Part shown: positions 1 to 22,797 of the stretch, piece by piece | Numbering within the stretch: the first letter of the stretch is position 1 | How the letters are laid out: each line of letters begins with the position of its first letter | Origin: Psammoneis japonica | Taxonomy: Eukaryota | Length of the DNA stretch: 64,000 nt | Assembly: GCA_008632985.1 (NCBI GenBank) | Contig: QPGO01000004.1 | Coordinates: 806,001-870,000 of the forward strand | Direction: 5' to 3' | The notes under the pieces: generated by a model | Seen by the model: only the letters and a program-made list of their open reading frames with translations | Told to the model about the DNA's origin: nothing | Databases searched by the model: none | Translations under genes and position numbers: made by a program

Positions 1-554
1 GAGAATCCGAGCAGCGGCGACGATCGATTGGGGCTCATATAACTTACCGCATTGCGCTGACCGACCGACGATCGAATGACTGAAAGCATAGCTTATGATA
101 TCTCTTGTGGATAGCTTGTGGCTTTACTCTTCCTTTCGTCCCTCCAATAAGCTGGTTACGGGAAAGTGCAACGGTGCTCGAATGCCGATCTCGAGAAAAG
201 CTGTTCGTTGTGCGGTGGTGGCCTGTTGGCGCTGTTGGCCGAGAAAGATCTTCGCGAAGTTCCGCGCTAAAGAAGGGAGGGAATGCGTGCGACGAACAGA
301 CACACTCGGTTCCTACTTCTACTTCTAGCTCGCTCGCTATCTCATCTTGGATCTACTCGTATTTATCATCTCTACGTACCGGTACTCTAGTACCGTAGTA
401 GAGAGGGCCTATCTAATAACTCTTGTGGGATTTCAATCGAAAAGCTATCCCATCCGGATATTTTTACAACGGCAATCTGAAACGAGCCGACTGTAAAAGC
501 GAGAGTGTAGCATGCTGACAGGATAATCTTTAAAAAGAAGAAAGCTCACGAAAA

Positions 555-1718
555 CTAAAGGGACGACTTGGGCTCGACCTCCAAGACAGCGGCAGCGCCC
601 ATTCCGGTTCCAATGCACATTGATACAACACCAAATCTCTTCTTGCTTCTTTGTAGCTCATAAACAAGTGTAGCAATCTGTCTTGCACCCGTACACCCGA
701 GTGGATGTCCTAGTGCAATTGCACCGCCGTTGGGATTCACCTTGGCGGCATCAATCTTGAGGTGATCTACACACCACGTGGCTTGCGATGCAAACGCTTC
801 GTTGATTTCATAGACATCAATATCTTCGACACTCAAGGAGGTTTGTTCCAAAACCGCAGGAATAGCCACAGCTGGTCCAATTCCCATGATACGTGGAGGA
901 ACACCCTTTACGGCAAAACCACGCCACACCGCCAACACTGGGAGGTTTCGTTTTACAGCCTCTTCTCTAGTCATTAACAACACTGCAGCTGCACCGTCAG
1001 TTGTTTGACTCGAGTTTCCAGCAGTCGTAACGCCATTTTCGTCAAACACAGGTTTCAACCTAGACAAGATGTCAAGCGACGTGTTGGGTCGAATCCCATC
1101 GTCTCTCGTCACGTTTCCAACAGGAACAATTTCCGCATCAAACTTGCCTGCTGCTTGTGCACTCGCTGCCTTTTGATGAGACTTTGCTGCAAATGCATCT
1201 AGATCGGTTCGATTCAGTCCATACTCTTTTACAACGTTTTCACTCGTAACTCCCATGGGAGTCAGACAATCCATGGCTGGCGGACATTTTTTCATTTCGT
1301 CCCAATCCACGTCCGGCATGGGTATGCTCTTCATGGGATGGGTTGACATGCTTTCCACTCCAGCTCCAATACCGATCGTTATTTGACCGGTCGCAATGGC
1401 ATTGGCAATGTTGGCTACTGCTTGTAGTCCAGAAGAACACTGACGATTCACAGTGTGTAGCGAGCAAGTGTCTGGGTATCCAGCAGCAAGCTGTGCCATG
1501 CGCATTGCTGCGGCTCCCGATGCAGGTGACAGCACATTTCCAACACACACGTCCTCCACATCGTGAGGCTGAATCGATGACCCACATCGATCCAAACATC
1601 CCTTGAGAGCCACCGACAACAAGGTCGACGGAGGTACCTTGGCCAATCCACCCTTTCTTGCTCGACACAGCGGAGTTCGAACAGCACTCACAATCACGAC
1701 GTCAGACGATCGACCCAT
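555..1718 (-). CDS. 3-ketoacyl-CoA thiolase, probably peroxisomal
   Basis: Thiolase motifs NRQCSSGLQA, NEAFA, GGAIALGHPLG, SMCIGTGMG; C-terminal SSL is PTS1-like; intronless 387 aa. Confidence 0.95.
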   Translation of the reverse strand: MGRSSDVVIVSAVRTPLCRARKGGLAKVPPSTLLSVALKGCLDRCGSSIQPHDVEDVCVGNVLSPASGAAAMRMAQLAAGYPDTCSLHTVNRQCSSGLQAVANIANAIATGQITIGIGAGVESMSTHPMKSIPMPDVDWDEMKKCPPAMDCLTPMGVTSENVVKEYGLNRTDLDAFAAKSHQKAASAQAAGKFDAEIVPVGNVTRDDGIRPNTSLDILSRLKPVFDENGVTTAGNSSQTTDGAAAVLLMTREEAVKRNLPVLAVWRGFAVKGVPPRIMGIGPAVAIPAVLEQTSLSVEDIDVYEINEAFASQATWCVDHLKIDAAKVNPNGGAIALGHPLGCTGARQIATLVYELQRSKKRFGVVSMCIGTGMGAAAVLEVEPKSSL

Positions 1719-2694
1719 GTTCTATCTTTATCTTGTTTAAGAAGAGAATAGCTTTTTGGCTTATGTGCTTGGCACGACCTCGATCAACGATGAGTGCGTC
1801 GTTTTTGTTCTGTGAAAAAAAGATGAGACCATTGTCGACACGCGGAGGCAAGTTCAAAGTGCAAGATCGAGTGCACTATTTTGGAGAGCTCGAGAGCTTG
1901 AAACTCTACGTTGTCGTAGGCCACGTCACCGAGTAGGAACCTACGTGGTCCATACTGAACAGCCCTTTTAACCTTTGACGTCACGTTCGACGTGGGCCAG
2001 AAAAATTTGAGTTCGCAACGAGCTTCTCATTCACAATTTCCCCCCGACTGATCATCACGAAGACGAGAGAGCGCAGGTAAGGTAAGAACACGTCCCAAGC
2101 GCATCGTTTTCGAATCATCTCTTGCTGTATCTAGTACGATATGCGTCGTTGAGACGTTCGATGAGTCAATTTTGGCCTTCATGGGGTATCAACTCGTCGT
2201 TTGCCGACGACAATGCTGAAACGGTATGTTTGATGCGAAGCTCTTTTCACGACCCGAAATCGGAGTATTCGCTTCTTACTTGCCTTGCATCGACCGGTGT
2301 TGTTCTATGCATTCGGATTTCAGGCTGATAAAGTCGCTTTGGAAGCAATCGTTGTCTCACCGTTGGCCATGGCTCGTTTGGATTGAGAGCAACGTCGATG
2401 TTTCTCGCGTATGTGACGCGGCCTCGTGGCTTTGGTACTGCTTCTACGGTGCGATTTTTTTAGCAGCAGAAAAGGGTGCATCATCGCATCGGATTTGTGA
2501 AATTTGAATTTTCTACGTAGTTTCTACGTAGACCGCGGTACAATCCAATGATTTCATTTTGTTTTTCGTGCCTGTCATCTGCAATTCTTTTTCAGACCCA
2601 TCAGCTGCGCTACTGTGTCTCATCGAATCTTCTTTTGCATCGTCCCATGCTCTCTCCCATGCAGTTTGTTTATTGTAATGCTTCGCAGAGTAAC

Positions 2695-3495
2695 ATGAGT
2701 GAGGATAGTACTAGTAAGGCCGATCAGTTGGAACTTACAGAGTCGAGAACATCGTCGACTGTTGATTACGACACGGACAGCGCGCACCCGCCGGTATCTC
2801 CCAAAACCCCTGCCGAGAGTTTCTTTCTCCCGCAGCTGGGAACATCGCAGATATCGGCGTTTGCGCTTGCGTCTGAAATCAACAAGAACAGTCGACGTGC
2901 TGGCTCTTCTCGTTCCAACTATTCTGGCGCGACGGACGATTTCGCGAGTGCAGTTGATAATGCAGAAGACTTGGACTCACCCGAACACACCCCCACACCT
3001 TCTTATAATTTGTTTGGAAAGGACGTGCTTGTTATCTCACGAGAACCGATACCCGAAGACGATCTAGAATTTCAAGACTCAATCATGTCACAAGAAAATC
3101 ACGTTGACGTTGCCCAGCATGTATACGAAGGAGCCAAGGACGTTTGGGCCTGGGGAAAGGGCGTTGGAGTGTTCAAGCCCTTTCTCGGACTTGCTGAAGG
3201 AATTGCCTCCAAGGTTGTTTCTGTGGCAGGATCCAGCCTCGGCGACATTGATGGTGAAATCAAGCCGAAGCTTGCTGGACTCGATGATAAATACATCAAC
3301 CCAGCTGTCAATGCTGTTGTTGGGCTCATCCTTTCCACCGTTAGCAAGACGGATGAGTTTGTTCGTCCCATCATCATGACGGTGCTTGGACCCATTGGTC
3401 TTGCTCAGATTGAAGACGGAGAGTCGTCGAGCAGCAAGAAGAAGCCGTTGGACACCAATCCCGAAACGACCACGCCTGTGGCTGTCATGAACTAA
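2695..3495 (+). CDS. Uncharacterised protein (Ser/acidic N-terminus, amphipathic/hydrophobic C-terminal half)
   Basis: Long ORF; likely ATG at 2695 just after a CAG acceptor (2686-2688); possible 5' UTR intron from GTAAG at 2077. Confidence 0.7.
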   Translation: MSEDSTSKADQLELTESRTSSTVDYDTDSAHPPVSPKTPAESFFLPQLGTSQISAFALASEINKNSRRAGSSRSNYSGATDDFASAVDNAEDLDSPEHTPTPSYNLFGKDVLVISREPIPEDDLEFQDSIMSQENHVDVAQHVYEGAKDVWAWGKGVGVFKPFLGLAEGIASKVVSVAGSSLGDIDGEIKPKLAGLDDKYINPAVNAVVGLILSTVSKTDEFVRPIIMTVLGPIGLAQIEDGESSSSKKKPLDTNPETTTPVAVMN

Positions 3496-4039
3496 ACAAG
3501 CATTGGGCAAAAGAGTAGTTTTTAGAAACTTATGCATCGATCTTGGGCTAGTTGATGCTTACATAGAGATTCGAGAGAAAGATTTGAAGCTACGCATACG
3601 AAGATATTGGAGTCTCATTCCTTTATGGTACATGGATATATGACTTCTTGTTTCTTTACTTTGAATGATAGTAGTGTGGTGTTTCTTGAGTTTCAGATTG
3701 TTGTTCTATCTTGTCGTACTGTACGGGTATTATGCGATGCCTTTCGAGCAATCGCGGCTGCCGTCATGTTATGGTTATTGAATCGAATGTGACTCCTTGT
3801 TGCTTTAGGGCCCTACAGTACTTCGAACGATACCGGCAGTACTGCGGTGTTTCTTGAGTTTCCTACAGTATTGTGGTTCTTGCCGTTCGGCTATTCTATC
3901 TATGCGATGCCTTTAGAAAGAGGTACACGAATTACTTAGACGAGGTTGCACGTCACGTTGCACATACACGTATTGTAACTATTTGTAGTCATTAGTTGTT
4001 AGCGTTTCGATCATGCGTCGTCCCTACCAGTTCTCTACT

Positions 4040-6205
4040 CTAGTCGGCAAGATCCTCGCACAAGCGTCCATCGTTTCCTAGCTGTCTCAGATAGTTGGTA
4101 GCCTCGTCCGCGTTCATGTTGCCCTTTTCTTGCAAAATGCTGTGCAACACATTTTCGACAGCAACTCCAAGCGACCGTTGACCACCACAAACATAAATAT
4201 AAGCACCCCGTTCAATAGCGTCATAGACCATGTCTTGTTCTTCCTTGATGACGTCGGATATCAACCCACAGGCTTGGCTAGGAGTAAAGCAACCTGATGA
4301 ATACGCAACATTAGCAGTCGTGACGGCGCCCACCTCCTTGGCACGGTCAATCACTTCTCGGTACACTTCATCACGAGGATTGCGAAATCCCAAAAACAAA
4401 TGCCCATCGCCGTACTGGGTTGCTTGCAACGCAATGCGTTCTTCGAGAAAGGCACGAATCGGGGCGACTCCACAACCACCAGCAATCAGCAAAACGGGTG
4501 TAGCAATGTCTTGCGGAAGACGAAAGGTTGGATTCTTCTTGATGTAGGCAGGGACACTGTTGAACTTGTCGTCATCCTGAATGACACCCAAGTCCGACAA
4601 GAAACTAGTAGCAACACCCTCTCGAAGTACTCCTCGGCTTGTCACGTACTTGACGGGTCTATACGTGATAAATACCTCTCGTGGATGAAGCAGAGCCGAC
4701 GATGCAATGGAATAATGCCGAGGAGTCATGGGTGGTAAATTGTACAAGAGTTCCTCCAGCGTTGGAAGGTTGCCACTCTCGTAAATCAAATCAAGCGCCG
4801 TCTTGCGTGTCAAGGCAATATCCCGTTTGTATGCAATGTCCTTTTTCAGAAGCAACTCTCGTGCAAAAGAGGGTGACGGCACGGCTCCCAAATCCACACA
4901 ATGCGACAAGGTCTCGCGTACAGTCAATCCCGTTGGATGAGGATACTTTCTCGAATCGCCAGCGTCTTGTTCAATAATGCTTTGCGGGTCCACGTCCAAC
5001 ACGTCCAAATAGGCATCGACAATGCAATCCGAGTTTCGTGGATAAATGACAACTAAATCACCCGCTTCGTACGTCACGTCTGGATGGTCCTCGAGTGAAA
5101 TGCACATTTCTCGCAACCCATAGTCACCACAGCCGACGCTCAGTGGGCCATTCACCGTTACGCGCTGTTGCACACGTGTTTTTTTTTCTAAGTGAGCACG
5201 ACGATGATTCGTTTTTCAACATATTAGACAACTCAATAGCAATCACAACCCAAAGCTTACCATTTTTCTCGTTTGTGGCTGATAAAATGGATGATCCGTG
5301 TTTTGCAAATGAAACAAATCGTCCCTTACAATTTCCGTCTCTGGCGCGAGCAACCGGAGTGGATGGTACTTGTCTGAAATTCGTCGCTCCATTTCCTCCG
5401 TCTTGTGTTGCTCGACCTCACTCGGAAGAGAATCAATAGATTCGATATCCACGTGCTCGACCCCCTCTGTTGCTTTGCTGCTTGGGTCTTGTGTCAAGTG
5501 CTGCACTACACTCTGTACCCATACGTCACAATCGTCTTCAATACAATCCCCATCATCGCCTAGACCCAAATCATGGACTCGTATCGCACCCAATGCTTGT
5601 AACTTTGCATCAATGCCCTTGCCAATGACATTGTAATGATTGGGATGTGCCTGTTTGTTGCCCAATCCAAACACGGCGTAACGAATCAACGACCAATCTT
5701 GCATGGTTGCATCTTGTTGTTGGGAAAGCCACTCGTAAAATTGTCTGGCATTGTCGGGTGGTTCTCCGACACCCGCCGTGGATATGAAAATAATATTCAA
5801 CGAGTCGGGATCCAACGCTTGATCGGGACTTGGTGATTCGTGAAGACCTACAATGTCAACTTGACGTGATTCGTCGGCTTCGTAGAGAGCGTCCGACAAT
5901 TGCATGGAAAACAGCTGTGCCGTGCCACCCTGAGAACCGTACATGATTTTGACCGGGTCGTGATTTATGGACGACTCGTTTTCGTCGTCATTGTCAGTTG
6001 GTAGTGTCGAAAAGTATCTGTAAGAAGTTGCTCTTGTGGAAGGAGCAAAACGGCATGCTTCGAGCGACGAGGCTCGAGACGAAAGCGTAGAGAGTCTCGA
6101 ATTGCTGCTCAAGACTCTAACATGACGACTTGAATTGGAACGTATGGTTCGACAGAGACTTGATGTAAGCGGTCGAGCCGCTCGTCGTGTCGTAAGGAGC
6201 ATCAT
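4040..6205 (-). CDS. Diflavin (FMN/FAD) oxidoreductase, cytochrome P450 reductase-like, with mitochondrial-type presequence; 2 exons (6205-5261, 5164-4040)
   Basis: Flavodoxin motifs YGSQGGTA, STAGVGEPPDN, YAVFGLGN; FNR motifs PRHYSIAS, GVATSFL, IAGGCGVAP, YVCG; GT-AG intron 5260-5165 keeps the frame; Arg/Ser-rich N-terminus. Confidence 0.9.
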
Positions 6206-6496
6206 GGTTATGTTCTTCACGCTGTTGGCAGAAATTGTGGCACCTTTCACCAACGAAAAAGGGGTTTGGGTTGGCACTTTTTTTCTCCCGCCCGCACTTT
6301 CATGATGCGCGACGTTTCTGTGACGCAAAATCCGAACACCCTTCATGTCTTCTTCCTGAAGTTTCGACGCCCCCACGTAGAAATCTACGTAATCGTGTAT
6401 GACCTCAATGCGAACCCCGCCCGCGGGCACTTCAAGATCCACGAAATCTTTTTCTGCAGAAGATCGCACAACAGGCACACACACACAACACTCACC
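6206..6496. promoter_or_regulatory. Putative bidirectional promoter between the reductase and HCP
   Basis: 291 bp between divergent ATGs; contains palindrome ACGTAGA-aa-TCTACGT (6375-6390) and two CCGCCCGC motifs. Confidence 0.55.
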
Positions 6497-8501
6497 ATGA
6501 TGTTTTCACGCCTTGCCGTTTCCAGTCTCCGTCGTCGTGGAACGACCGTACTCGCCAGACAAGCTAGTATTGCTGCTCGTAAGAATGTTGGCAGTCTCTC
6601 AATTGCAACAAGCAGATCCTTTTCTGCTTCTGCTTCTGCACCGACGCCTCCTCCCATGGAAATGTTCTGTCGTCAATGCGAACAAACCAAGGATCATTTG
6701 GGTTGCACCACGTTGGGTGTTTGTGGTAAAACATCCGAAACATCAGCACTACAGGACGGTTTGATTCAAGTCGTAAAGACGGTCAGTCTCTGGGCCGTGG
6801 CGGCACGAGAGGCGGGGGCTTCTGCGGAAGAAATGAAGGCTGCCAATGACTGGACGCTCCACGCGGCGTATGCCACCATGACCAATGTCAATTTCTCCGA
6901 GAGTCGAATTGCTCAACAACTTCATCAAGGCATGCGTATCAAACAAGTCTTGCAAGAATTAGTCACTGCCAAGGGCGGAACGGCTCCGACGGGACCTGTA
7001 GCAGACTTGGAATTGGAGCCCAGTGCGTCCATGGAAGAATTGGAAGACTTTGGAAGAAGCGTGTCGATTCCAAAACGCAAAGAAAACATGGGAAATGACG
7101 ATTGCTTTTCACTCAATGAGATTGCCACGTACGGTACAAAGGGGGTTTCCGCGTATGCGGCTCACTGTCGAGAAATGACAGCCGAGGTCGATGAGACCGT
7201 CATGGTGGCTGTGCATGAAATTTGGAGCAAACTCGCCTCGGACGAGGCTGACATGGACGGACTCTTGGCGACCGTGTTGAGAGTGGGAGAAATCAATGCA
7301 ACCGTTTTGGCCAATTTGGATGGTCTTCACGCTTCCACCTTTGGCGATCCCGAACCCACTCCGGTACGAACCACGGCGGTCAAGGGTAAAGCCATTCTCG
7401 TGTCGGGACATGATTTGGTAGATCTCAAGGCGCTTTTGGAACAGACAGAAGGAACCGGAATCAATGTATACACGCACGGAGAGATGCTTCCCGCTCATGC
7501 CTATCCGGAGCTCAGGAAACACGAGCATTTGGTGGGAAACTACGGAACTGCGGTACGATGTTGGTTCGAGTACTGTCAGCTTGTTTCAGCATAAAACATA
7601 CTTTCTCATCTGTTTGTCGTTTTCTCTTTTACACATCAGTGGCAAAACCAAAAGTTTGAGTTTGCGGCATTCCCTGGACCAATTGTCATGACGTCCAATT
7701 GTATCATTGAGCCTCGTCGTATTTACAAGGATAGGATCTACACAATGAATGCCGTCGGTATGGATGGAATCAAGCATATTGGAGAGGAACGAGACTTTTC
7801 CGAAGTTATCGCTCAAGCGCAGTCCAAAAAGGGATTCCCAAAGACTATTGAGCCCGCGCATTACCACACTACGGGATTCAATCACCGCGCCGTGTTGCCT
7901 CTTGCAGGACAAGTCATTGAAGCTGTCCAGAAGGGCGAGTTGTCGAGAATCTTTTTGATTGGTGGATGCGATGGTGCGTTCGATTGGGGAGTGTTTAACT
8001 ACTGTGCTTTTCTTGTTTCTCACCCCGTTCTTTTTTTTTACTATTACCACAGGAAGCCAATGGGAACGCAGCTACTTTACTGATTTAGCCGAAGAGACGC
8101 CGGACGATTCCATCATTTTGACTCTTGGTTGCGCCAAGAACCGCATTATTCACAATGAAAAGCTACTCAACGCCACTCTTGCCAATGGTCTTCCCCGTGT
8201 GCTTGATATGGGCCAGTGCAACGATTCCTACTCGGCCGTCGTTGTTGCCACGGAGCTTGCCAAGGCGTTGGATTGCAGCGTCAATGACTTGCCTCTCAGC
8301 TTGGCCTTGTCGCATTTGGAACAAAAAGCTGCTGCCGTCCTCTTGACGCTACTCAGTATGGGTGTAAAGAATATCCGACTTGGACCGTCGCTTCCGGCAT
8401 ACGTCACTCCCAATGTTCTTGATGTGTTGGTCAAGAATTACAACCTCATGCCCACGGGTGACGCCAAGGCTGACATCAAGGCCATGATGGCTGGGAACTG
8501 A
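6497..8501 (+). CDS. hcp: Hybrid cluster protein (prismane; hydroxylamine/NO reductase), 3 exons (6497-7552, 7640-7973, 8053-8501)
   Basis: MFCRQCEQT...GC...VCGK (C-x2-C-x8-C-x5-C), SGHDL, YTHGEMLPAH, NYGTA|WQNQ, TSNC, GGCDG, LGCAK, DMGQCNDSY, LEQKA; splicing restores the motifs exactly; mitochondrial-type presequence. Confidence 0.97.
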
Positions 8502-8614
8502 TGAGAATGATACAACTACATGTATTTATAGAGAGAGGAGATACTAACTCAAATACACACGACTCTAGAGAGAAATCTATATGTTGTAGTTTGAACTTTG
8601 ACCTGGCTGAATCT

Positions 8615-10396
8615 TTACTCGGTAGGAAGGTACTTTCCTGGATTCATAATGCCGTGTGGATCAAACATGGAACGAATCGATTTCATTGCCGACAATGCGG
8701 TCGCATCCTTGGCCATGGTCAAATAGTTGTTTTTGCATTGGCCCAGACCGTGCTCGGCTGATATTGAACCCCCTCGCCGAACTACAGACTCAAACAAAAA
8801 GGGTTCAATCAGAGTTGTAATGCTTGGATCCTCGTCAAAATCTCCCGGTGTCGTCACATTGAAATGAAGGTTACCGTCAATGACATGGCCCCAGTTCACG
8901 ACCAAGGCATGCTCTGGCAATCGATTTCGCATTTCTAGTATTATATCATCAAAGTCAGACACTGGAAGTGAAATGTCGTATTTCCAATTGTAGCCTAGAC
9001 CGAGTATGGAGTCAATACCGTATGGATGACGCAATCAGAAAAGCAGTGTAAGAAAAACGAGACTCGACGCTCGTTCTCGCATTGTCGTCAATGTACCCAC
9101 CTGTTGATTTCACAACGGGATTGCAGGATTCTCGCACTTCCCACATTTGATGAACCTGAGACAAATCTTGGGCTAAAACTCCATCTACTACAAGGCTTTC
9201 CTCCATGGCTGCCTCCAGAAATGATTCCATTTTCTCCATGTCATGGTCCGCATTGGATCCTTGCGTTTCCACCAAAAGGCTGTACGGATAACACTCCCCA
9301 TTGCTACTAACCAGCGGCACTTTTACTTCATTTCTGACAAGATCCAGAACTTCCTTATCGATGAATTCGAATGCAGCCAGTACCTCGCCAAGCTTTCCTT
9401 TTGCCATGGACAGTGTCTGCTGAACCTGTTCAAACGTCTCGCATGCCAAAAAGGCGGCGTTGCGAGCCTGCGGCAATCGCGGACACAGCAAGGCGACCTT
9501 GGTAATTATACCTAAAGTTCCTTCCGCCCCAATGAACAAATGCTTTACATCGTAACCGGTATTGTCCTTGAGATTTACCGCACTCATTAGGTCAAGCACG
9601 TTTCCATTTGGAAGCACAACTTCCAACCCCAACACGTTCGCATGCAAAGATCCAAAACGATAAAAGTACTGCCCCCCGGCATTGGTGCTAACGTTACCAC
9701 CAATACAGCAGGTTCCTTTTGCACCCAAGTCCACTGGAATCATGTGATCTTGTTGGGAAGTGTAGTCTTGTAAATTTTGTAAAATGCAACCAGCTCCACA
9801 TTTCAAAATGCCGCTCGTCTCATCCAATCCCTCGACCTCATCCAATTCTTTGACACTCACAACAACTTCCTTTGCTATCGGAACGCTTCCACCGACCAAT
9901 CCTGTATTTCCCGCCTGAGGAACAACTCCGATTCGCTTTTCGTGACAATATCGCAAGATGGACGAAACCTCTGCGGTTGTCTTTGGCCGAAGAACAATTT
10001 CAGAAAATCCCTCGTAATGTTTCTGTGGAATCAGCAATCCATGATTTGTTCACATTAGAACTTGATCAGATGCAAGCTTTACGTACAAAAGAGATCACTT
10101 ACAGTCCAATCGCTATTGTATTGCTCGAGTAGGTCTTCACTCGTCACAACGCTCCCTTGGCGCTTGTTCATCATGGCCAAGAAATTCTCGGCATCCTCAT
10201 TCGTCGCAACGTTCAATCCTGAAAACGCCCTGCCGAAGAAAGATTTCTCGCGGAAATCTTTCGATATTGGGGATACAAGCTTGCTGAACGCTTTTGGCAG
10301 AACCGTGCCAAGCTCCTCAGCGATGTTGCCATGGTCGCCATCATCAATCAGAACCCACGAAGATGCAAGATCCAAAATTGTGACGGATCTTCCCAT
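8615..10396 (-). CDS. D2HGDH: D-2-hydroxyglutarate dehydrogenase-like FAD oxidase (3 exons)
   Basis: PQAGNTGLVGGSVP, IGGNVSTNAGG, KDNTGYD, FIGAEGTLG, GHVIDGNLH, GSISAEHGLG, DPHGIMNPGK; start codon uncertain. Confidence 0.92.
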
Positions 10397-10746
10397 AAAC
10401 GTCAAAATAACCGCCAACGAACAGTGTTACTGTAATGACGACGGTATTGCCAACAGGCGCCCGTAGTCTACTGGCGCGGCGTGTGTGTTGCCCGCCGGCC
10501 CGCACGCCATTTGCCATGGCGCCAGCACGTTGAACGTTGCCATCGTGTTACGTTCAAGCCCTGTTTTGCTGTTATCTTTCATCATTCATTCAATCCGTCA
10601 ATCCTGCAAACTGCACAACTCTTTCGCGCTTTTGCCTATGTTAAGCTGAAGTCACGCCTGAGTGTCCTTTCAATCCTTACTCAAGAATTCCTCCAGCGGA
10701 TTCGTTGAGTCTCGACGACAGGCTCATTCATGATTTCGTCAAGAGG

Positions 10747-11710
10747 ATGGACACCCGCGACAATTATGTCTCGTTTGCTTGCGGCTTTGCTGCTGGAGTT
10801 GCACAGGCTGGGGTGTTTAACGCTTATGATCGAGCTTTATATCTCAGCATCAAAAACAAAACTCCTTTCCTTTCTCTGGAGAATTTCCGCAGACCCGTGA
10901 GTGTAATTTCGATGCCATTGTTGGTGATAAAGGGTCTCTTTGGCACTCACCTGCTGTTTCCACACATTCAGTATTTGGGGTTCGCGCAGTCTGTTGGAGG
11001 AAGAGCCTTGTCGGGTGGCTTGTAAGTGCGTCTATTCTATTTTCAGGCTCACTGTTATTTTGCGTCATGGATTCTCAGCTTTATTTTGCATCCGTCTCAG
11101 ATACTTTCCGCTGGAACACATGTTCATGTCCCTAATACCAAATGACGGAGGCGCTTTTCACAATTTCATGGCAGGCACTGCAGCTGGAGCGGTCAATGGG
11201 TTACTGCTCAACCCAATGTCTGCTCTCAAATATAAAACGTGGGGCAGAGATATCAACCGCGGAATGTTCACTGAAGCTCAATCCATGCTGCGCAGGGGTG
11301 GTCTCCGACCTTTTCGAAATGGTCTCATCCCAACATTGACGAGAGATGTAGTCTTTGGTGCATCCTATACCTTTTTACGATTTCAGGCGCAAGAACTCGG
11401 GCTCCCACATGAACGTCAGTGGCTGGCAAATCTAGGTGCAGCCGCGGTTGCAACGGTGGCCAGCGGACCGTTCAACTTTGCGAGGAACATTCAATACGCG
11501 ACAAAAACAGAGGCGAATGCTCCGAGTATGGTTACGATTCTGAGCAAACTCTCTGCAAAGATGCTTCAGAAACCAACTTTCGCTGAAAGGGCTAGATACC
11601 TTCAGAAGCGCTTGCGAATTGGGTGGGGGACCGCTCGCGTGGCTGTTGGGATGGCGTTTGCGAACTATGTCTACGACTTTTGTATGCTTCAATACGCGCG
11701 ACCGTCGTGA
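10747..11710 (+). CDS. Mitochondrial carrier family protein (spliced)
   Basis: Carrier-like TM repeats (FAAGVAQAGVFNAYDRA, NPMSALKY, GPFNFAR); GT-AG introns near 10897 and 11021. Confidence 0.8.
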
Positions 11711-11784
11711 AAGTCTAAAGTCCCTTTATTTTCGTTTACGAGAATGTTTTGGAACAGCATTGCTCGTTTAAATCTCGAGTCTCT

Positions 11785-12276
11785 CTAGCTGCCCGTCACG
11801 GAGTCAATAATTCCGGATATTCCGCCCTTTGGAAGGAAGTGAAATGCATCGTCCAGCAAGAGAACAAATGGGTACATAAAGACAATCCTGAAGATGAAAA
11901 AAAGCATACTGTAATTAGACAACGGGGACGATTACAGTATGCTTTCTCAGTGTCCGACGACATGTTCAACGTACCATGCCCACCAACTAATATTGAAAGG
12001 GTTCTCATTAGCAACCATTTCAGTATCTACAAAATTCATCTCTTGAACTTCGCCGCTTGCTAGATTTACCGCTGTCATACCCTTGATTTTCTCTTCTTCA
12101 GTGCCATCGGCGCTTGGCGCTTCATCCTCGGTCGGCAGCGGTTTAGGATCCGACATGAACAGCGGTCCCGCCCTCATTTTCAGTCCGCTTGACAACAGGA
12201 TAGGTTTTGTGGGTGCAAATGCACATGATGCAACAAACGTCGCAACTAACACGATGAAAGAGAGCAAGCACCTCAT
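11785..12276 (-). CDS. Small plastid-targeted membrane protein, unknown function (2 exons)
   Basis: Signal peptide followed by ASCAFAP (ASAF-like) motif; GT donor near 11973; second exon ends at TAG 11785. Confidence 0.7.
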
Positions 12277-12590
12277 GGTAAAAGTCGTAAATTGCTCCTC
12301 TCAAATTGAAAATCTGAGGCGTTGCGTTGTTGGTTGGCACTTTTGGCGCTTCAACATCGAATGGATTGGTACTGAATCTACGGAAGTCTGTACATACGTA
12401 GAAAACATATTGGAGCTTATGTAGGCGATCTTCAACATCGTAGGACGGACAGGTCGCGCCGAAATTATTGTGGATTGTGGATTGATCGACGGATGATAAA
12501 AATGACACCGAGCACAACAAAGGAAACGTGCAAGCCGCTCGAACCCCCACAACGCCTTCCCTTTAGCCATCTATCTGGCATCACCCTATC

Positions 12591-13310
12591 ATGAAACGTT
12601 CAGCTGACGACAGCCACGCAGGTCCTGCACTCACGCGTCGCTCGACACGTGCGTCCGTTCGCCGCGAACAACGCGAGCAGTTAGCGCTCGTGGCACAACA
12701 CGAACGCGCTTCCGTGCTCATGTCGACGCCTCTCCTTCAGGCTCTGCCTTTTGTTTTGTCGAGTGGATATCTCTACCAGCACGACTGCATGTCAGCGGCA
12801 GCCACATGTCAGAACTGGTTTCACACTTGGAAGGAGGTGGAAGATCAGTTTCCAGAAGACTCGCAGTTTGAGGTCTTTGTCGAGAACATCACTAAATCTG
12901 TTAGAAGGAGTGTCATCAGCGAATGGCCCGCGTGGGTGGAGGAGCAAAGCCTTCAATCGACACTCTCGTCACCGCAGTTTGTTCGTCAAGTTGTTGACAA
13001 GGTCCATGCTTTGAAGTTGGCGTCGAAACCAGGCAAGACGGCTCGCGCCAGAGCCAAGGCCAAGGAAGCGCTGCCCGTTTGGGGTGTTGACCTTCAAGTC
13101 GCGATTGTCCAGGTTTGGGGTCCCAACTCTCATAACTTTGGAGGCATGCATATCGAGATGGGCAAGAAGAGGTGCTGTAGGATTCTTCAAAGCGGCCGTG
13201 CATTCTTGAGGGGGCGCGCACCATTCACGTGCCGCCTTCACCCAGATATGGAGTTGTGGACCGGTATTCGCAACTGGGAAGTATACGATGGAGAACCCCT
13301 CTGGCCATGA
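12591..13310 (+). CDS. Hypothetical protein
   Basis: 239-aa ORF with good start context; no recognised domain. Confidence 0.5.
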   Translation: MKRSADDSHAGPALTRRSTRASVRREQREQLALVAQHERASVLMSTPLLQALPFVLSSGYLYQHDCMSAAATCQNWFHTWKEVEDQFPEDSQFEVFVENITKSVRRSVISEWPAWVEEQSLQSTLSSPQFVRQVVDKVHALKLASKPGKTARARAKAKEALPVWGVDLQVAIVQVWGPNSHNFGGMHIEMGKKRCCRILQSGRAFLRGRAPFTCRLHPDMELWTGIRNWEVYDGEPLWP

Positions 13311-13931
13311 TTTAGATATTGTAGCGTGGAAACGAATTTGTTACCGTACATACGGGGATACTTTCGCTAAAACTGCGCGCAGTAGAATGGGGGTGGCAAG
13401 ATTTGCGACGTGGAATGCGTACTGTACTTGGTCAAGACTGAGAAACATTACATGAATACTGCATGCAATCGAGCAAACTAAACTTTGGCTGGGAGAGCTG
13501 AAATCTTCATGAAATACTCTAGGAATCAATAGGAATAGATTTACAAATTGACGATTCAGACAACTCGTTGTACAGCCGCAACCACGGAGCTTATTGCATG
13601 GTTGTTTTGATAAGCGAAACCTACCAGAAGCCTCATTATCCTGCTGTGCTTCATAATCTCTACCATCCGCAGTCATCCGGAAAACTCTCATACGAGAGAC
13701 TTTTTTCCGGCCATTGCAAGTCACGATCAAGCTTCTCTCACGCCACAATTAATACCTGAACAGCTAGTCAGTCATAACCCGGTGCTACTGTACAATGCCC
13801 ATCACCACACGGGTGTAGAATGTCAAGGCAGGGTAGTCACGTTCCAATACCAGCAACTAATTCAACTTATTAAGAGTGGCATGAGAATGCAGAAGGTAGG
13901 TCAATACGCACCCTGCAGAAATGCTCCTACC

Positions 13932-14720
13932 TTACGTTTGACTCCTGCTACGACTCCTAGAGCGGGAATAGGACCTCGATCTACTTCTACCACTCCCGTC
14001 GTCACTATCCCCTCCTCTCCGACGACGGTGGGACCTTTTCTTCTCCTCACGGCGGCTCCGCTTTCGCTTCTTCTTTTCCCGGTGGCGCTCTGATTCTCGC
14101 TTCATCGCCTCCTGCCGCCGGTCTTCTTCGCAGTCGGCCTCGAGACTCCTAATCAGAGCCATGGGAACGGGCTTGATATGCATAAAGTTGCAATACCCGC
14201 CACGACTGCAAGTATCCTCATCAAAGTCACGGCAGCGAGCCTCGCGAAAGTCTGTCACGGGTGAGAACTCGACTTCAATCTTGCGACCGTCGTAGAACCG
14301 CCCATTCATGACCTGTAGAGCGTCACTCGCTTCCTCTTCGTCGGAGAACTTGCAATAGACGTGACCAATCATGTGATCTCCAAGATTGTCGCATACGTGC
14401 AACTGCTCAATCACCCCAAATTTGCTCAGCTCCACAAACATGTCTTCAAAGAAGCAAAGAAAATCCTCGAACGCTTGCTCTTTATCTACAAGCGATTCGG
14501 GATTCATGGCGGGTGCGCCTCCTCCTCCGGAGAGCTTGAGCTCTGCTTGACGAACAGGATGACGGTACAGATGCTTGATTAAAATCGTCTGGCTGAACGC
14601 CGGCCGATGATGAAGACGGGAGCAGCGGTCTGAGTGACGGCATGCTCCAATCTTGAAGTAAAACGGACAGTTCACCTTATCCTCTTCGGTTCCGTGAATT
14701 CGTGCTAGATGCTTTGCCAT
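13932..14720 (-). CDS. U2AF1: Splicing factor U2AF small subunit (U2AF35)
   Basis: GTEEDKVNCPFYFKIGACRH, UHM/RRM, SPVTDFREARC, second CCCH finger, RS tail. Confidence 0.97.
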   Translation of the reverse strand: MAKHLARIHGTEEDKVNCPFYFKIGACRHSDRCSRLHHRPAFSQTILIKHLYRHPVRQAELKLSGGGGAPAMNPESLVDKEQAFEDFLCFFEDMFVELSKFGVIEQLHVCDNLGDHMIGHVYCKFSDEEEASDALQVMNGRFYDGRKIEVEFSPVTDFREARCRDFDEDTCSRGGYCNFMHIKPVPMALIRSLEADCEEDRRQEAMKRESERHREKKKRKRSRREEKKRSHRRRRGGDSDDGSGRSRSRSYSRSRSRSRSQT

Positions 14721-15066
14721 GATGATATAAGTGCCGATGTAGAGATCACAACGTCCTTCAGAGTATGAAATTCTACCAGTGCCTTTCGCTGCGACGTCGA
14801 CGTTGCCATTGTGAGAACAACGTTGTTTTCTCGTGGGTGCGGATGCGATGATGGACACAGGGATGGGATGGACGGACGGACGGACGGAAGAGATTCGAAA
14901 GAAACCCGGAGAAGCTCTTCGATCGGTATCCTCTATCCTCTGTTCTGTCTGTACTACGGTACTAATAGCTCTCTCTACGACTAGCTCTCTAGAGTAGAGA
15001 CTAGCTAGAGAGAGTGGCTAGGATATTAATAGGAAACAGCTCCTTCAGTGTGAAGACTGTAGAGAA

Positions 15067-15461
15067 GCAGCTATTCGGGGTCGGGTTGACTTGCTTGAAC
15101 TCTGGTTCCGCCGTTGTCTGCTGCGAGGAACTGCAGAACAGGTTCAAGTCTCGCCACTTACTACAGTTGGATCCCGCACTGCATTCCGCGCGGCTGGGTA
15201 GTTTGCGGCTACCGGTAGGCTCTAGCTACTAGGGGTGGCTAATGGTAAATATCTAGAGGCACACCGATTTCCGCCTTCACTCTCTCAAAACTCTCTCCGC
15301 TTGTAACTATCTAGAGTTAGAGTGTAGATAAGGCGTGTGTGTGTGTATCGGCGGCGCAACAGAGAGGTGCTCTTCTCTGACGAGACACGCTAGTCACCGC
15401 AACTCACCCGATTTTGTTGGACATGATACACTATCAATACTAATGCACCAATGACGGAGTG
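15067..15461 (+). repeat. Diverged direct repeat, copy A (matches 19393-19722)
   Basis: Shared colinear blocks GGGTTGACTTGCTTG, AGAACAGGTTCAAG, GCATTCCGCGCGGCTGGGT, TCTCCGCTTGTA, CTATCAA. Confidence 0.9.
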
Positions 15462-15601
15462 ACACCTGCCCTCCCGATCGGAAGCCTCGTTATTGCTTAG
15501 CTCAATGGATTAAAAGTACAACTTTATTATTCATTCTAGTCGGTGCAGTGCTAGTTTCAGTTCCTGAAGTAGAAAATGTTTTCTATTGCTGCTACTTGCT
15601 A

Positions 15602-17026
15602 CTACGACAGAAACGAGAAGAAAAAGGCATCCGTGTCCAACGAATAGGGAGAACTGTTCTGGCCACCAGATGAACAGTTCCCAGAAATGTCGGCCGAGCC
15701 CAGAAATATGGCATCATCGGATGAGCTACCGACGATTCGTATCAAATCGGAATACACCTTGGCCGTCTGTGTCTTTCGAGCAGTGTTGTGGCTCCGATGC
15801 AACCAATCACACTGAAAACGAACCGTTGCACAATCGGGCCCGTGCTGTTCAATTCTTAAAAGTGGTACGCACCACACTTTCCCTTGGATACTTGCAATGA
15901 TGCGCTGCAATATAGGTGCTGGAAAGGACACGAGATTGACTTTGCCACTCCCTTTGGGCTGTAGACAGCCAATAGCTGCATCACCATAGTTCGACGGCGC
16001 ATCGGTGTTCCTCGAAAGGAAAAACGTTGACTTGTCTGCTACCGAAACTGACAAGTCAATGGCGCAAAGCCATCGCCACCCGAGGTTCCACAGAGTTTGC
16101 AAGACACCACAAATGAGTTTGGCCGAGGCAATATTTTCCTCTGTGGTCTGTGGACACCAAGGCCGTCCAATGCATTTGATTTGTCGAGTACCTTCAAAGT
16201 TGTTCGTCTCACTAATCCCGCGTTTCCAATGGTTTTGGACAGCACTATCAAGTGCAGATATGGTCATCTCATCCGTAACTCCAATGAGACGAATCTTGTG
16301 CATCCGTTCCAGCGCAATGGCACAAATCTCCGGGGGAAGGCGTCGAGGCATGGATGGGTCACGAAAGAACAAGAGTGAATCAGCATCGTAATCGCTAATG
16401 GAGCAGTCAAACGATACGACTCGACTCCAGCCATTTGATTCCATATATGCCAGCATCTTGATGACCATCTTGTATGCATCCACACTTTGAGAACTGCTCT
16501 TTTCCTTAGATAGCCAGGGTCGGCCAGCCAACTTGTATCCACGAATCCCGTACTTGTCATTCACAGTTACACCATATTTCCAGCTTGAAACAAGCACCTG
16601 CCTTAACCCTTCCATTTCCGATTCGGGAAGTTGTACTAAGCGAACCTTGTCTACGTGGCCCAGCTGTATAACAGCGAGTTGTGTGGGGTGGATGTCAGAA
16701 TTTCTTTGAAAGAAGAGAGTCCCCGCCGACCACCCAACAATGTTTAGGTCGGCGCAGCACAAGAGCTGCATATTATGTTGTTGCATGGCTTGCACGAGAT
16801 CCAAAAAGATCTGACGAGATGCAACGCTGGAAGCGTGGTAATCTTTCCAAACGTTAGTAGATTGAAATTTTAGTCGATAGCCACCGTCGCGCGGTGTTTT
16901 CAAGGCCTGCTGGATGTGACTATTGTTTGTGTTGTGGAAGAGGGCAAAATCTGCCTCGCAAAAGGGTTGAATCAGCGCCTTGGGCCCACTGCAGTAGTAA
17001 AGAGAAATCGTTTGGACTTCTGCCAT
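15602..17026 (-). CDS. Uncharacterised protein with ~115-aa internal repeats
   Basis: Intact intronless 474-aa ORF; repeated KVRLV/KIRLI/KVNLV ... GRPW ... GW ... DxS ... FF units. Confidence 0.85.
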   Translation of the reverse strand: MAEVQTISLYYCSGPKALIQPFCEADFALFHNTNNSHIQQALKTPRDGGYRLKFQSTNVWKDYHASSVASRQIFLDLVQAMQQHNMQLLCCADLNIVGWSAGTLFFQRNSDIHPTQLAVIQLGHVDKVRLVQLPESEMEGLRQVLVSSWKYGVTVNDKYGIRGYKLAGRPWLSKEKSSSQSVDAYKMVIKMLAYMESNGWSRVVSFDCSISDYDADSLLFFRDPSMPRRLPPEICAIALERMHKIRLIGVTDEMTISALDSAVQNHWKRGISETNNFEGTRQIKCIGRPWCPQTTEENIASAKLICGVLQTLWNLGWRWLCAIDLSVSVADKSTFFLSRNTDAPSNYGDAAIGCLQPKGSGKVNLVSFPAPILQRIIASIQGKVWCVPLLRIEQHGPDCATVRFQCDWLHRSHNTARKTQTAKVYSDLIRIVGSSSDDAIFLGSADISGNCSSGGQNSSPYSLDTDAFFFSFLS

Positions 17027-17206
17027 AGCGATTGTACTGTAGATTGTAGGAGTAACGACGACTAACCACGACGATAATGTGAGAAAATGAGGTCGAAAAG
17101 GTGCGTCTTCGTCAAAATCAGCGAATGAAAATTGAAAATCGCGAGCAAAATCACGCTACCGGGAATGAAAAGCACGACTGTAATCTTCCCTCGTTGTTGC
17201 GAGCTA

Positions 17207-17524
17207 CTACGAATTGCTGAACAATTGCGCGATACACGTGCCGGAACGGTGATTGTTGCTTCGGGCACGAAATTCGAGCTTCGCGCACGTAGAGACCGTA
17301 GAATATGTACCAGCATTCGAGAATGTCCGATTTGTGTAGATCACGTAGCACCGTACCACAGAGGTCATTTCATGAAATTCCCGCGACGACTCATACGACT
17401 CCAATGGTATTTTCAATACCATATGCTATGTAGAATGGACATCTCCCGAACGGTGATTGTTGCTTCGGGCAACGATATTCGAGCTTCGGGCACGTGTATC
17501 GCGCAATTGTTTTGCAATTCGTAG
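17207..17524. mobile_element. MITE with ~36-40 bp terminal inverted repeats and TA target-site duplication (Tc1/mariner type)
   Basis: CTACGAATTGCtgAACAATTGCGCGATACACGTGCC at 17207 versus its reverse complement at 17489-17524 (2 mismatches); TA at 17205-17206 and 17525-17526; internal repeat GAACGGTGATTGTTGCTTCGGGCA occurs twice. Confidence 0.85.
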
Positions 17525-17526
17525 TA

Positions 17527-19390: not shown

Positions 19391-19392
19391 TC

Positions 19393-19722
19393 GCAGCTAT
19401 TCAGGGCCGGGTTGACTTGCTTGTACTATCTCTGGTTCCCCCGTTGTCTGCTAACTACAGAACAGGTTCAAGGTCTCGCTACTAGTTTGATCCCGCCCAG
19501 CATTCCGCGCGGCTGGGTGGCTTGTGGGGTGGTGGTAAATCTCTAGAGGCTTACCGATTTCTGCATTCCACTCTCTGAAACTTTCTCCGCTTGTAGAAAG
19601 AGTGTGCCTATCGGCATTGACAGAGGTGTTCTTGTCTGCTGAGACTTACTGTCGCCGCCGCCACCAACCCGATCTTTTTTGAGGCGGTACCCTATCAACA
19701 CTAACGCATCTATGACGAAGTG
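19393..19722 (+). repeat. Diverged direct repeat, copy B (matches 15067-15461)
   Basis: Same colinear blocks as copy A, with several small deletions. Confidence 0.9.
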
Positions 19723-19755
19723 GTTTCATCATAGCCTATGAGGTACCATTTTACA

Positions 19756-22700: not shown

Positions 22701-22797
22701 GTTTCTTTAGAATCGCCTTCAGCTTCTCGTAGTTTATATAGAACTCTGCCCATTCGGCAACCTTATTATCTTCCAATTTTAGTCCAAACTCGACCAT
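19756..22797 (-). CDS. SPX-EXS phosphate exporter (XPR1/PHO1/SYG1 family), multi-exon
   Basis: MVEFG..L...W.EFYINYEKLK (SPX), INYTGFVKIIKKHDK, RVNYIYLF, GDVLTS, RFNQCLRRY, NAFKY, WDVFMDW, RRTVWAFFRLENEH. Confidence 0.95.

Follow-up and report, generated by a model that had tools for sequence, protein, structure and literature searches.

A conserved head-to-head gene pair in the diatom Psammoneis japonica probably encodes HCP and a dedicated CPR-like diflavin reductase

HCP and a diflavin reductase of the diatom Psammoneis japonica are encoded by divergent, head-to-head genes whose start codons are separated by a 291-bp spacer (6206-6496), and the same arrangement, with HCP immediately upstream of the reductase, was found in six of the seven metagenome contigs that were testable. 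The window, that is, the whole stretch of DNA analysed, comprises 64,000 nucleotides of contig QPGO01000004.1. HCP (hybrid cluster protein) is an iron-sulfur enzyme, and its bacterial form reduces nitric oxide or hydroxylamine. For algae, passages of two reviews call its function and its electron donor open, with ferredoxin as a proposal only (PMC7412212, PMC8003979). Our analysis, which is one of sequences, suggests that the two P. japonica proteins are probably a dedicated reductase-HCP redox pair, a variant of the bacterial Hcp-Hcr theme, and that the reductase is a candidate electron donor of HCP. A conserved dedicated diflavin partner would be a concrete protein pair to express, localise and knock out.

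The features of the locus are collected in Table 1. The divergent start codons 291 bp apart that had been recorded in the initial annotation were recovered at the same coordinates, and the introns that it had reported in both genes are GT-AG introns, and at all three junctions the alignment with orthologous proteins is free of gaps. For the reductase intron, two GT-AG models kept the reading frame open, and the one spanning 5260-5165 was confirmed by gap-free orthologue alignment. The splice models of both genes are comparative throughout, being based on open frames, Pfam continuity and orthologue alignment.

Table 1. Coordinates of the HCP-reductase locus and of a nearby gene within the window
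Feature	Position	Strand	Description
Gene X	2695-3495		Apparently unrelated; also near the pair in L005, L014 and L007/L008 (three further taxa)
Diflavin reductase gene	exons 6205-5261, 5164-4040	-	2 exons, 689 aa
Reductase exon 2	4040-5164	-	374 codons plus stop (4040-4042); end of connecting region, FAD-binding and NAD(P)H-binding domains; FAD_binding_1 5e-20, NAD_binding_1 4.6e-8
Reductase intron	5165-5260	-	96 nt, GT-AG; junction gap-free against P0121, P0122, P0135
Reductase exon 1	5261-6205	-	315 codons; 84-aa basic N-terminal extension, FMN (flavodoxin) domain, linker; Flavodoxin_1 7.7e-23, residues 87-229; CPR FMN-domain alignment
Reductase start codon	6205	-	Read from the sequence
Shared 5' intergenic region, candidate bidirectional promoter	6206-6496	.	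291 bp, read from the sequence
HCP start codon	6497	+	Read from the sequence
HCP gene	exons 6497-7552, 7640-7973, 8053-8501	+	3 exons, 612 aa
HCP exon 1	6497-7552	+	352 codons; 56-aa extension, C-x2-C-x8-C-x5-C cubane motif, first half of Prismane fold; Prismane 2.1e-59, profile 1-262
HCP intron 1	7553-7639	+	87 nt, GT-AG; profile continuous from 262 to 263; ...NYGTA|WQNQKF... gap-free against P0001, P0008, P0012
HCP exon 2	7640-7973	+	Prismane 1.1e-22, profile 263-364
HCP intron 2	7974-8052	+	79 nt, GT-AG, phase 1; ...GGCDG|SQWERSYF... gap-free against P0001, P0008 (P0012 alignment stops at the junction)
HCP exon 3	8053-8501	+	Stop codon included; Prismane 2.7e-49, profile 368-513

The three HCP exons together cover the whole Prismane profile (PF03063; 513 positions), with bit scores of 202, 81 and 169 for exons 1, 2 and 3 against a cut-off of 27. 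After the presequence stands the four-Cys motif C-R-Q-C-x8-C-x5-C-G-K; in 35 relatives, three of its Cys columns are invariant and one is nearly so. All seven residues that we take, from Desulfovibrio structures, to be the hybrid-cluster ligands (one His, two Glu and four Cys) are present in the P. japonica protein and occupy invariant columns in the alignment of relatives, the motifs concerned being SGHD, THGE, TNC (here TSNC), GGCDG, LGC, GQCND and LEQK. The Cys spacing had been described as not of the E. coli type, and this proved correct. The P. japonica spacing of 8/5 (C-x2-C-x8-C-x5-C) does not match the class II pattern C-x2-C-x11-C-x6-C (11/6), and in the alignment E. coli HCP (7de4) is 3+1 residues longer at this place, although over the whole of exon 1 the match to this class II structure (E 6e-63) is stronger than that to the class I structure from Desulfovibrio (8e-52). 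The 8/5 spacing was present in 35 of the 80 closest bacterial HCP loci, the 11/6 spacing in 17. Green-algal HCPs were 38-45% identical to exon 1.

Pfam placed Flavodoxin_1, FAD_binding_1 and NAD_binding_1 on the reductase exons and found no Fe-S domain there. In line with the earlier description of the enzyme as CPR-like, the solved structures that match it best are those of NADPH-cytochrome P450 reductases (E 2e-42 and 6e-24), and it shares with CPR the three-domain layout, the FAD motif R-x-Y-S within R-x-Y-S-I-A-S-S, G-V-A-T, and the Cys of Y-V-C-G. The cofactor motifs that it keeps are RHYSIASS, GVATSFL, GGCGVAP and YVCGG. Among the matches listed, its clade comprises some 90 long members with identities of 39-57%, the next match, after a gap, being at E 8e-33; in the tree the clade is distinct (SH-aLRT 100, 20 rows built) and lies apart from fungal CPR, P450-fused and NOS reductases. 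Identity with CysJ was rejected, given that CysJ structures scored E 2e-27 as against 2e-42 for CPR and that CysJ rows formed a separate clade (SH-aLRT 99). NDOR1 and methionine synthase reductase were rejected because their structures scored far below CPR (8.8e-8 and 2.6e-23).

Several features set the reductase apart from CPR. The N-terminal membrane anchor of CPR is absent and a basic presequence stands in its place, with 12 Arg and Lys residues in the first 84 positions. The C-terminus reads ...EDLAD where CPR has ...LDVWS, with Ala at the position of the Trp that presumably stacks on FAD in CPR, and D-L-A-D is fully or almost fully conserved among 25 members of the clade. At the NADPH 2'-phosphate site, S-R...K of CPR, of which we take the Arg and Lys to bind the phosphate, corresponds to S-S...C. 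The two Tyr residues that sandwich FMN in CPR align with Ala, beside a clade-specific insert, K-A-H-P-N-H-Y-N. Having lost the Trp that stacks on FAD and the residues that bind the 2'-phosphate, the reductase may have shifted toward NADH. Such a natural loss of the CPR Trp gate and phosphate-binding residues is of interest to researchers working on diflavin enzymes.

HCP and a diflavin reductase were also found in a single polypeptide. Among the 120 long relatives of HCP that were listed, seven have Flavodoxin_1 and FAD_binding_1 on one chain with HCP (P0084, P0093, P0094, P0106, P0109, P0111 and P0116, with the EukProt labels 'Hpha' and 'PhM_4' among the sources). All seven have the reductase at the N-terminal and HCP at the C-terminal side of a protein of 1163-1274 aa, and several begin with a short basic N-terminus, e.g. 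MMRRT. That such fusions exist in protists suggests that HCP can be served by a diflavin reductase. They resemble the P. japonica pair in combining HCP with flavodoxin, FAD and NAD domains but differ in being one polypeptide, whereas P. japonica has two genes on opposite strands and a reductase of a different lineage. The fused reductases are 23-27% identical to P. japonica exon 2, compared with 28-31% for free CPR-like proteins, and they cluster with reductases fused to hydrogenase or to pyruvate:ferredoxin oxidoreductase (PFO), apart from the diatom clade (SH-aLRT 98). Constraining fused and diatom reductases together cost 32.2 log-likelihood units (AU p 0.035, a marginal value for a group chosen after the tree was seen). 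A common origin of the two was rejected on the grounds of identity, clade and AU value. As the fused reductases come from another lineage, it seems that HCP acquired a diflavin partner on at least two occasions. The literature searched yielded no description of either an HCP-diflavin pair or HCP-diflavin fusions.

The likeness to E. coli Hcp-Hcr lies in an HCP gene that adjoins the gene for a candidate dedicated, pyridine-nucleotide-dependent flavoprotein, which would feed the N-terminal Fe-S cluster, and in the overall similarity of HCP exon 1, which is greatest to the E. coli structure. The E. coli partner, Hcr, is an NADH oxidoreductase of the FNR type with FAD and [2Fe-2S], whereas the P. 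japonica partner is a flavodoxin-FAD-NAD diflavin enzyme without an Fe-S domain. The P. japonica genes are divergent, eukaryotic and intron-bearing rather than arranged in an operon, and the Cys spacings of the two HCPs differ as described above. In E. coli, a role of Hcp/Hcr in NO reduction is stated in a passage of PMC7412212. When the 80 closest bacterial HCP loci were searched by tblastn together with as much as 6 kb of DNA to either side, none had a diflavin reductase neighbour, and an inherited bacterial operon was rejected as the source of the pairing for this reason. Protist diflavin (CysJ-like) modules fused to PFO or [FeFe]-hydrogenase are similar in that an NAD(P)H-linked diflavin module is placed on an oxygen-sensitive Fe-S enzyme. 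They differ in having other acceptors, in being fused rather than paired and in occupying another branch of the reductase tree; the examples P0229, P0222 and P0236 are distant matches. Chlamydomonas HCP1-4 are likewise algal, nuclear-encoded and organelle-targeted, but ferredoxin is the donor proposed in a passage of PMC8003979, and the passages cited here make no mention of a paired diflavin reductase. Parmales are reported to be without hydroxylamine reductase (PMC10328945).

We consider it reasonably likely that the P. japonica proteins form a two-component redox pair with a shared promoter and with targeting peptides that direct both to the mitochondrial matrix. In the reductase, a diverged, soluble CPR-like enzyme, NAD(P)H would donate a hydride to FAD, and electrons would then travel singly by way of FMN to the [4Fe-4S] cluster near the N-terminus of HCP and on to its hybrid [4Fe-2S-2O] cluster. 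There they could reduce a small nitrogen oxide, either NO to N2O or hydroxylamine to ammonium. The head-to-head order may be kept so that one short intergenic region drives both genes, and N-terminal targeting peptides of the same type would bring HCP and the reductase together, most likely in the mitochondrial matrix. The initial annotation had proposed that a CPR-like enzyme was recruited as the HCP donor; likeness to CPR, conserved linkage and the protist fusions bear this out in part, the role of donor itself being still that of a candidate. A wider and more tentative proposal is that diatoms possess a mitochondrial NAD(P)H:HCP oxidoreductase made from a remodelled CPR-like enzyme, perhaps shifted toward NADH, that other protists arrived at the same solution independently by fusion, and that such enzymes would be the missing electron input of eukaryotic HCP. 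If true, eukaryotes would have arrived at the Hcp-reductase idea anew, using an unrelated reductase, and apparently more than once. The diatom system could then account for the detoxification of NO, or the release of N2O and ammonium, when diatoms are in the dark with little oxygen and much nitrate, and could bear on diatom nitrogen-oxide turnover, N2O included.

It is also conceivable, though we think it unlikely, that the two genes are co-regulated neighbours whose products do not form a redox pair. Both would then answer the same stress, for instance organellar nitrosative or redox stress, with ferredoxin or some other carrier feeding HCP, while the reductase would serve a haem protein, a quinone or a P450. 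Passages in which ferredoxin is proposed as the donor of Chlamydomonas HCP are consistent with this (PMC8003979), as is the statement that CPR-type enzymes reduce many acceptors (PMC6397501), so that the reductase could have other ones. However, the independent HCP-diflavin fusions show that such a reductase can be a dedicated partner, and a switch of partner would fit the changes seen in the clade, namely loss of the CPR membrane anchor and remodelling of the FMN and NADPH pockets. Retention of the divergent order in six of the seven testable loci also speaks for a redox pair.

Sharing of a compartment was judged from residue make-up and one motif. Both proteins carry basic, Ser/Thr-rich N-terminal extensions, of 56 aa in HCP (8 Arg and Lys versus 1 Asp or Glu) and 84 aa in the reductase (first acidic residue at position 49), in keeping with the Arg/Ser-rich presequences noted earlier; most orthologues have extensions of this type as well. 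The pattern R-x-[FYWL]-S-[STA] occurred in 18 of 34 HCP extensions and in 31 of 56 reductase extensions, compared with shuffled means of 1.5 and 3.1, respectively. Its form R-x-F/Y-S is one that we take to resemble mitochondrial processing sites. A hydrophobic, signal-peptide-like core was seen in neither protein, the maximal 11-residue Kyte-Doolittle mean within the first 40 aa being 1.21 in HCP and only 0.16 in the reductase. These properties suggest that HCP and the reductase share one compartment, which is probably mitochondrial. The possibility that the pair works as proposed but outside mitochondria, with the extensions acting as transit-like peptides for the plastid or another compartment, appears quite improbable. 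Import into diatom plastids requires a hydrophobic signal peptide, which the hydropathy values do not reveal, and the acid-poor, basic composition and the motif also argue for mitochondria. On the other side, three of the four Chlamydomonas HCPs are predicted to be plastidial according to passages of PMC8003979 and PMC7412212; in the latter, HCP2 is given as detected in a mitochondrial proteome.

Metagenomes were scanned with an alignment of reductases, as a single-protein query alone gave no relatives. An orthologue of the reductase was carried by 17 loci, seven of which had more than 1 kb of upstream DNA. The six contigs with a divergent HCP gene immediately upstream (L002, L003, L007, L008, L016 and L018) represent four distinct taxa because L002/L003 and L007/L008 are near-identical pairs. 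The ATG-to-ATG gaps were 166 (L016), 436 (L018) and 553 (L007/L008) bases. In full-length tblastn matches, the reductases of the linked loci were only 40-47% identical to that of P. japonica, indicating that the linked taxa are far apart. The exception, L011, is an AT-rich contig with a reductase 37% identical, a capping-enzyme-like ORF upstream and no HCP within 2.6 kb. Bases 1-20000 of the window contain 55 ORFs that reach 100 aa or more, and only those over HCP, the reductase and gene X matched the loci. The HCP-reductase pair is more conserved than its surroundings. No intergenic 8-mer was common to more than three of the five regions compared (P. japonica, L003, L007, L016 and L018; L002 was left out), and those reaching three were AT-rich words, with no motif shared between taxa.

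Since gene X is retained near the pair as well, part of the linkage may reflect inherited microsynteny and not selection. That the adjacency as a whole is such microsynteny without functional meaning, one unbroken case among the many head-to-head pairs of compact diatom genomes, is very unlikely: gene X, L011 and the missing intergenic motif would favour it, but the linked taxa are far apart, no flanking P. japonica ORF other than X is shared with any locus, X switches sides in L007/L008 whereas the HCP-reductase orientation never changes, and a link would be expected from the fusions independently.

The synteny whose examination the initial annotation had suggested was thus retained in six of the seven testable contigs, and there were hints of it in three named diatoms, where adjacency was inferred from locus tags or equal-sized contigs rather than from DNA. 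HCP and the reductase bear the consecutive tags SGBAC_005909 and SGBAC_005910 on a 23168-base contig of a Bacillariaceae MAG, each lies on a contig of 39711 bases in Seminavis robusta, and in Epithemia, where the contig measures 539184 bases, the tags are ACA910_013326 and ACA910_013324. Two more HCP/reductase pairs were found on equal-sized contigs of 11347 and 21660 bases.

Positions 4040-8501 hold two divergent nuclear eukaryotic genes, encoding a hybrid cluster protein (HCP) and a diflavin reductase with Flavodoxin_1, FAD_binding_1 and NAD_binding_1 domains (Pfam). Their start codons have 291 bases between them, and their best protein matches are diatom proteins (55-63% identity). The Prismane profile (Pfam) carried on over the HCP exon joins at positions 262/263 and 364/368, and the exon junctions of both genes (3/3) were gap-free in alignment to orthologous proteins. 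Judged from sequence, the predicted gene models are sound. The models, profile continuity, gap-free junctions and cofactor-domain content therefore confirm the divergent layout described in the initial annotation, which was correct in every particular.

Features of the window and homologues of gene X in metagenome loci
Feature	Location	Coordinates	Strand	Length	Basis
HCP	window	exons 6497-7552, 7640-7973, 8053-8501	+	612 aa	gene model from sequence
Diflavin reductase	window	exons 6205-5261, 5164-4040	-	689 aa	gene model from sequence
Gene X	window	2695-3495	+	266 aa	ORF matched in related loci
Gene X	L005	2589-3587	-		homologue in locus
Gene X	L014	569-1387	-		homologue in locus
Gene X	L007	1671-2456	+		homologue in locus
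FAD-linked oxidase gene	window	8615-10049	-		FAD_binding_4 + FAD-oxidase_C
Mitochondrial-carrier-like ORF	window	10931-11710			
Three adjoining ORFs	window	20285-22797	-		SPX + EXS domains
8-mer TCTACGTA	window	371, 2512, 2523, 2525, 6384, 12395, 43683			

The linkage of HCP and reductase is conserved. When metagenome contigs were scanned with an alignment, 30 loci were obtained, 17 of them with a clear reductase orthologue; loci with <600 bases upstream (L001, L004, L005, L006, L010, L013) or a cut 5′ end (L009, L012, L014, L015) were not judgeable. HCP lay directly upstream on the opposite strand in 6 of the 7 judgeable loci (L002, L003, L007, L008, L016, L018), the conserved linkage that had been named as a check on the pairing. 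Because L002/L003 and L007/L008 are near-identical, these loci count as four distinct taxa. Among named relatives, Seminavis was nearest to two of them (58-62%) and Cyclotella cryptica to a third (57%); the L018 reductase was ≤37% identical to any named member. Start codons were 166 (L016), 436 (L018) and 553 (L007/L008) bases apart, compared with 291 in the window. At the level of annotation, adjacency was indicated indirectly by HCP and reductase tags that were consecutive on one contig of a Bacillariaceae MAG and two apart in Epithemia, and by contigs of equal size in Seminavis robusta and for two further protein pairs; in most named diatoms the length of HCP fell beyond the range searched. 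In L011 (37% identity, AT-rich), no HCP was found within 2.6 kb upstream of the reductase, where the neighbour was a capping-enzyme-like ORF. L010 and L011 form a more distant AT-rich reductase branch, 37% identical to the window and closest to P0210 (46-47%); either the linkage was lost in this lineage, or the gene is a paralogue that works with a different partner.

HCP has all four N-terminal Cys and seven residues, in the motifs SGHD, THGE, TNC, GGCDG, LGC, GQCND and LEQK, which we take to be the hybrid-cluster ligands; all were invariant or nearly so among 35 relatives. When exon 1 was compared with solved structures, E. coli HCP (7de4) was nearest (E 6e-63), followed by Desulfovibrio 1e2u (8e-52). 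The C-x2-C-x8-C-x5-C spacing claimed for HCP was seen, including in the alignment to 7de4, which has 3+1 residues, missing from the window HCP, that give its 11/6 spacing. In the 80 bacterial loci with the greatest similarity to the diatom HCP, the spacing was 8/5 in 35, 8/6 in 22, 11/6 in 17 and of another type in 5 (unreadable in 1); the type seen in the window HCP is thus the most frequent one in its nearest bacterial relatives. Bacterial inheritance of the pairing was ruled out, as a diflavin reductase was found in 0/80 of these loci (tblastn with four queries, ≤6 kb of flank per side). Some HCP relatives were fused to an HD domain (PF01966; P0047, P0048, P0055, P0059, P0070, P0073; 704-731 aa), to AraC-type HTH domains (P0061) or to extra 4Fe-4S ferredoxin domains (P0081), which may hint at additional partners or regulation.

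The nearest solved relatives of the reductase were structures of NADPH-cytochrome P450 reductase (CPR; FAD/NAD half E 2e-42, FMN half E 6e-24), with P450-BM3, CysJ (2e-27), NOS, methionine synthase reductase (2.6e-23) and NDOR1 (8.8e-8) well behind, so its description as CPR-like holds. The FAD and nicotinamide motifs RHYSIASS, GVATSFL, GGCGVAP and YVCGG are retained. Unlike CPR, the reductase has an 84-aa basic N-terminal extension in place of a membrane anchor, and it ends in ...EDLAD (fully or almost invariant in 25 clade members) rather than ...LDVWS, so that the FAD-stacking Trp of CPR is Ala by position. The S-R...K segment, which binds the NADPH 2′-phosphate in CPR, is S-S...C, and the two FMN-flanking Tyr of CPR align with Ala, beside a clade-specific K-A-H-P-N-H-Y-N insert. 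Because of the behaviour of CPR Trp mutants, we infer that the Trp-to-Ala and S-S...C pocket changes would relax the preference or shift it towards NADH.

In a quick IQ-TREE analysis of 55 rows, the reductase fell in a distinct clade (SH-aLRT 100 for 20 rows). About 90 long clade members matched at 39-57% identity before a drop to E 8e-33, and the named ones span centric and pennate diatom genera (Cyclostephanos, Stephanodiscus, Cyclotella, Thalassiosira, Attheya, Seminavis, Fistulifera, Amphora, Mayamaea, Epithemia, Cylindrotheca, Nitzschia). The next-best long matches (E 8e-33 and weaker) were P0212-P0217 (1261-1420 aa), diflavin reductases fused to molybdopterin oxidoreductase domains, of which the two in the tree (P0212, P0213) clustered with CysJ. 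In P0326 (844 aa), also a diflavin reductase, Molydop_binding was the sole molybdopterin domain seen.

Among the 120 HCP matches listed, all >616 aa, seven carried flavodoxin and FAD-binding domains, with the reductase N-terminal, HCP C-terminal and a total length of 1163-1274 aa. Three have EukProt labels ('Hpha', 'PhM_4') that are presumably euglenozoan. The fused reductases were 23-27% identical to the window reductase, compared with 28-31% for free CPR-like proteins, and formed their own clade (SH-aLRT 100), joined with hydrogenase-fused and PFO-fused reductases (SH-aLRT 98). Thus a diflavin reductase was apparently joined to HCP at least twice, by different means. Constraining the fused and diatom reductases together cost 32.2 log-likelihood units (AU p 0.035, a marginal value for a group named after the tree was seen). 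A table footnote (PMC8003979) describes a Cyanophora HCP gene as fused to a 'sulfite reductase' gene.

From the observed domains, motifs, linkage, fusions and common presequences, we infer the functional steps of a redox pair. Electrons would pass from NAD(P)H to the FAD of the reductase, then through FMN to the [4Fe-4S] cluster of HCP and on to the hybrid cluster, which would reduce NO or hydroxylamine, and one short spacer would drive both genes. We consider it fairly probable that the reductase feeds HCP in this way. The apparent double recruitment is the strongest argument for the diatom neighbour as the donor of HCP, and such independent fusion supports the core idea of the initial annotation over co-regulation of two proteins that form no redox pair, which seems unlikely.

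HCP itself is known from diatoms: passages in published work count it among the most highly expressed bacterially derived genes of Phaeodactylum (PMC2945787), report it as present in diatoms and missing from Parmales (PMC10328945), and treat algal HCP function as unsolved with ferredoxin as a proposed donor (PMC7412212, PMC8003979). A proteome table lists the Phaeodactylum protein as hydroxylamine reductase Phatr3_J12416 (PMC8977783). No description of HCP-diflavin pairing or fusions was found in the literature searched. The diatom pair would represent a novel variation on HCP working with a reductase.

In complete orthologues, the extension before the conserved core had a median length of 68 aa in HCP (n=34) and 62.5 aa in the reductase (n=56). 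The first 30 residues contained on average 5.0 basic and 0.24 acidic residues in HCP and 4.9 and 0.61 in the reductase. R-x-[FYWL]-S-[STA] occurred in 18/34 HCP extensions (shuffles 1.5) and 31/56 reductase extensions (shuffles 3.1), and hydropathy of the window N-termini revealed no hydrophobic signal-peptide core in either protein. Basic, acid-poor extensions with this motif resemble mitochondrial presequences with an R-3 processing site, unlike the diatom plastid route, which begins with a signal peptide. HCP and reductase thus show a common type of predicted targeting peptide; a non-mitochondrial location, a variant compatible with the redox pair, seems rather improbable.

Comparing the 55 window ORFs of ≥100 aa (bases 1-20000) with all 30 loci gave matches only for ORFs over HCP, the reductase and gene X. 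In the window, L005 and L014, gene X and the reductase are tail-to-tail; in L007/L008 the tail-to-tail neighbour of gene X is HCP instead, and the flanks of L002, L003, L009 and L016 contain no gene X. Gene X therefore cuts both ways: its nearness to the pair in L005, L014 and L007/L008 means that some local synteny survives, yet it moves or is missing while HCP-reductase orientation is the sole constant, and meaningless inheritance of the adjacency is the least probable reading. Gene X matched no family in a Pfam search and carries a conserved block (…W-x-W-G-K…F-L-G-x-A-E-G…) at its C-terminus; an Atlas feature search (score 0.86) pointed only weakly to REF/SRPP and perilipin-like lipid-droplet proteins.

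A D-lactate-dehydrogenase-like FAD-linked oxidase gene follows directly downstream of HCP in convergent orientation; it is split between two frames, so an intron is probably present near 9012-9034. Neither this gene nor the next, a mitochondrial-carrier-like ORF, had a homologue in the 30 loci. The SPX and EXS domains over three adjoining ORFs point to a single intron-containing gene of the phosphate-transporter or sensor type. The 8-mer TCTACGTA has 7 copies compared with 0.4 expected, a number reached in 0/100 shuffles. Three copies precede gene X by ~170 bp, one is in the HCP-reductase spacer within the inverted repeat ACGTAG-AAAT-CTACGT, one is just upstream of an SHMT gene, and one precedes the ORF at 12567 by ~170 bp. 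The 8-mer resembles a promoter element of Psammoneis japonica and is not particular to the HCP-reductase pair.
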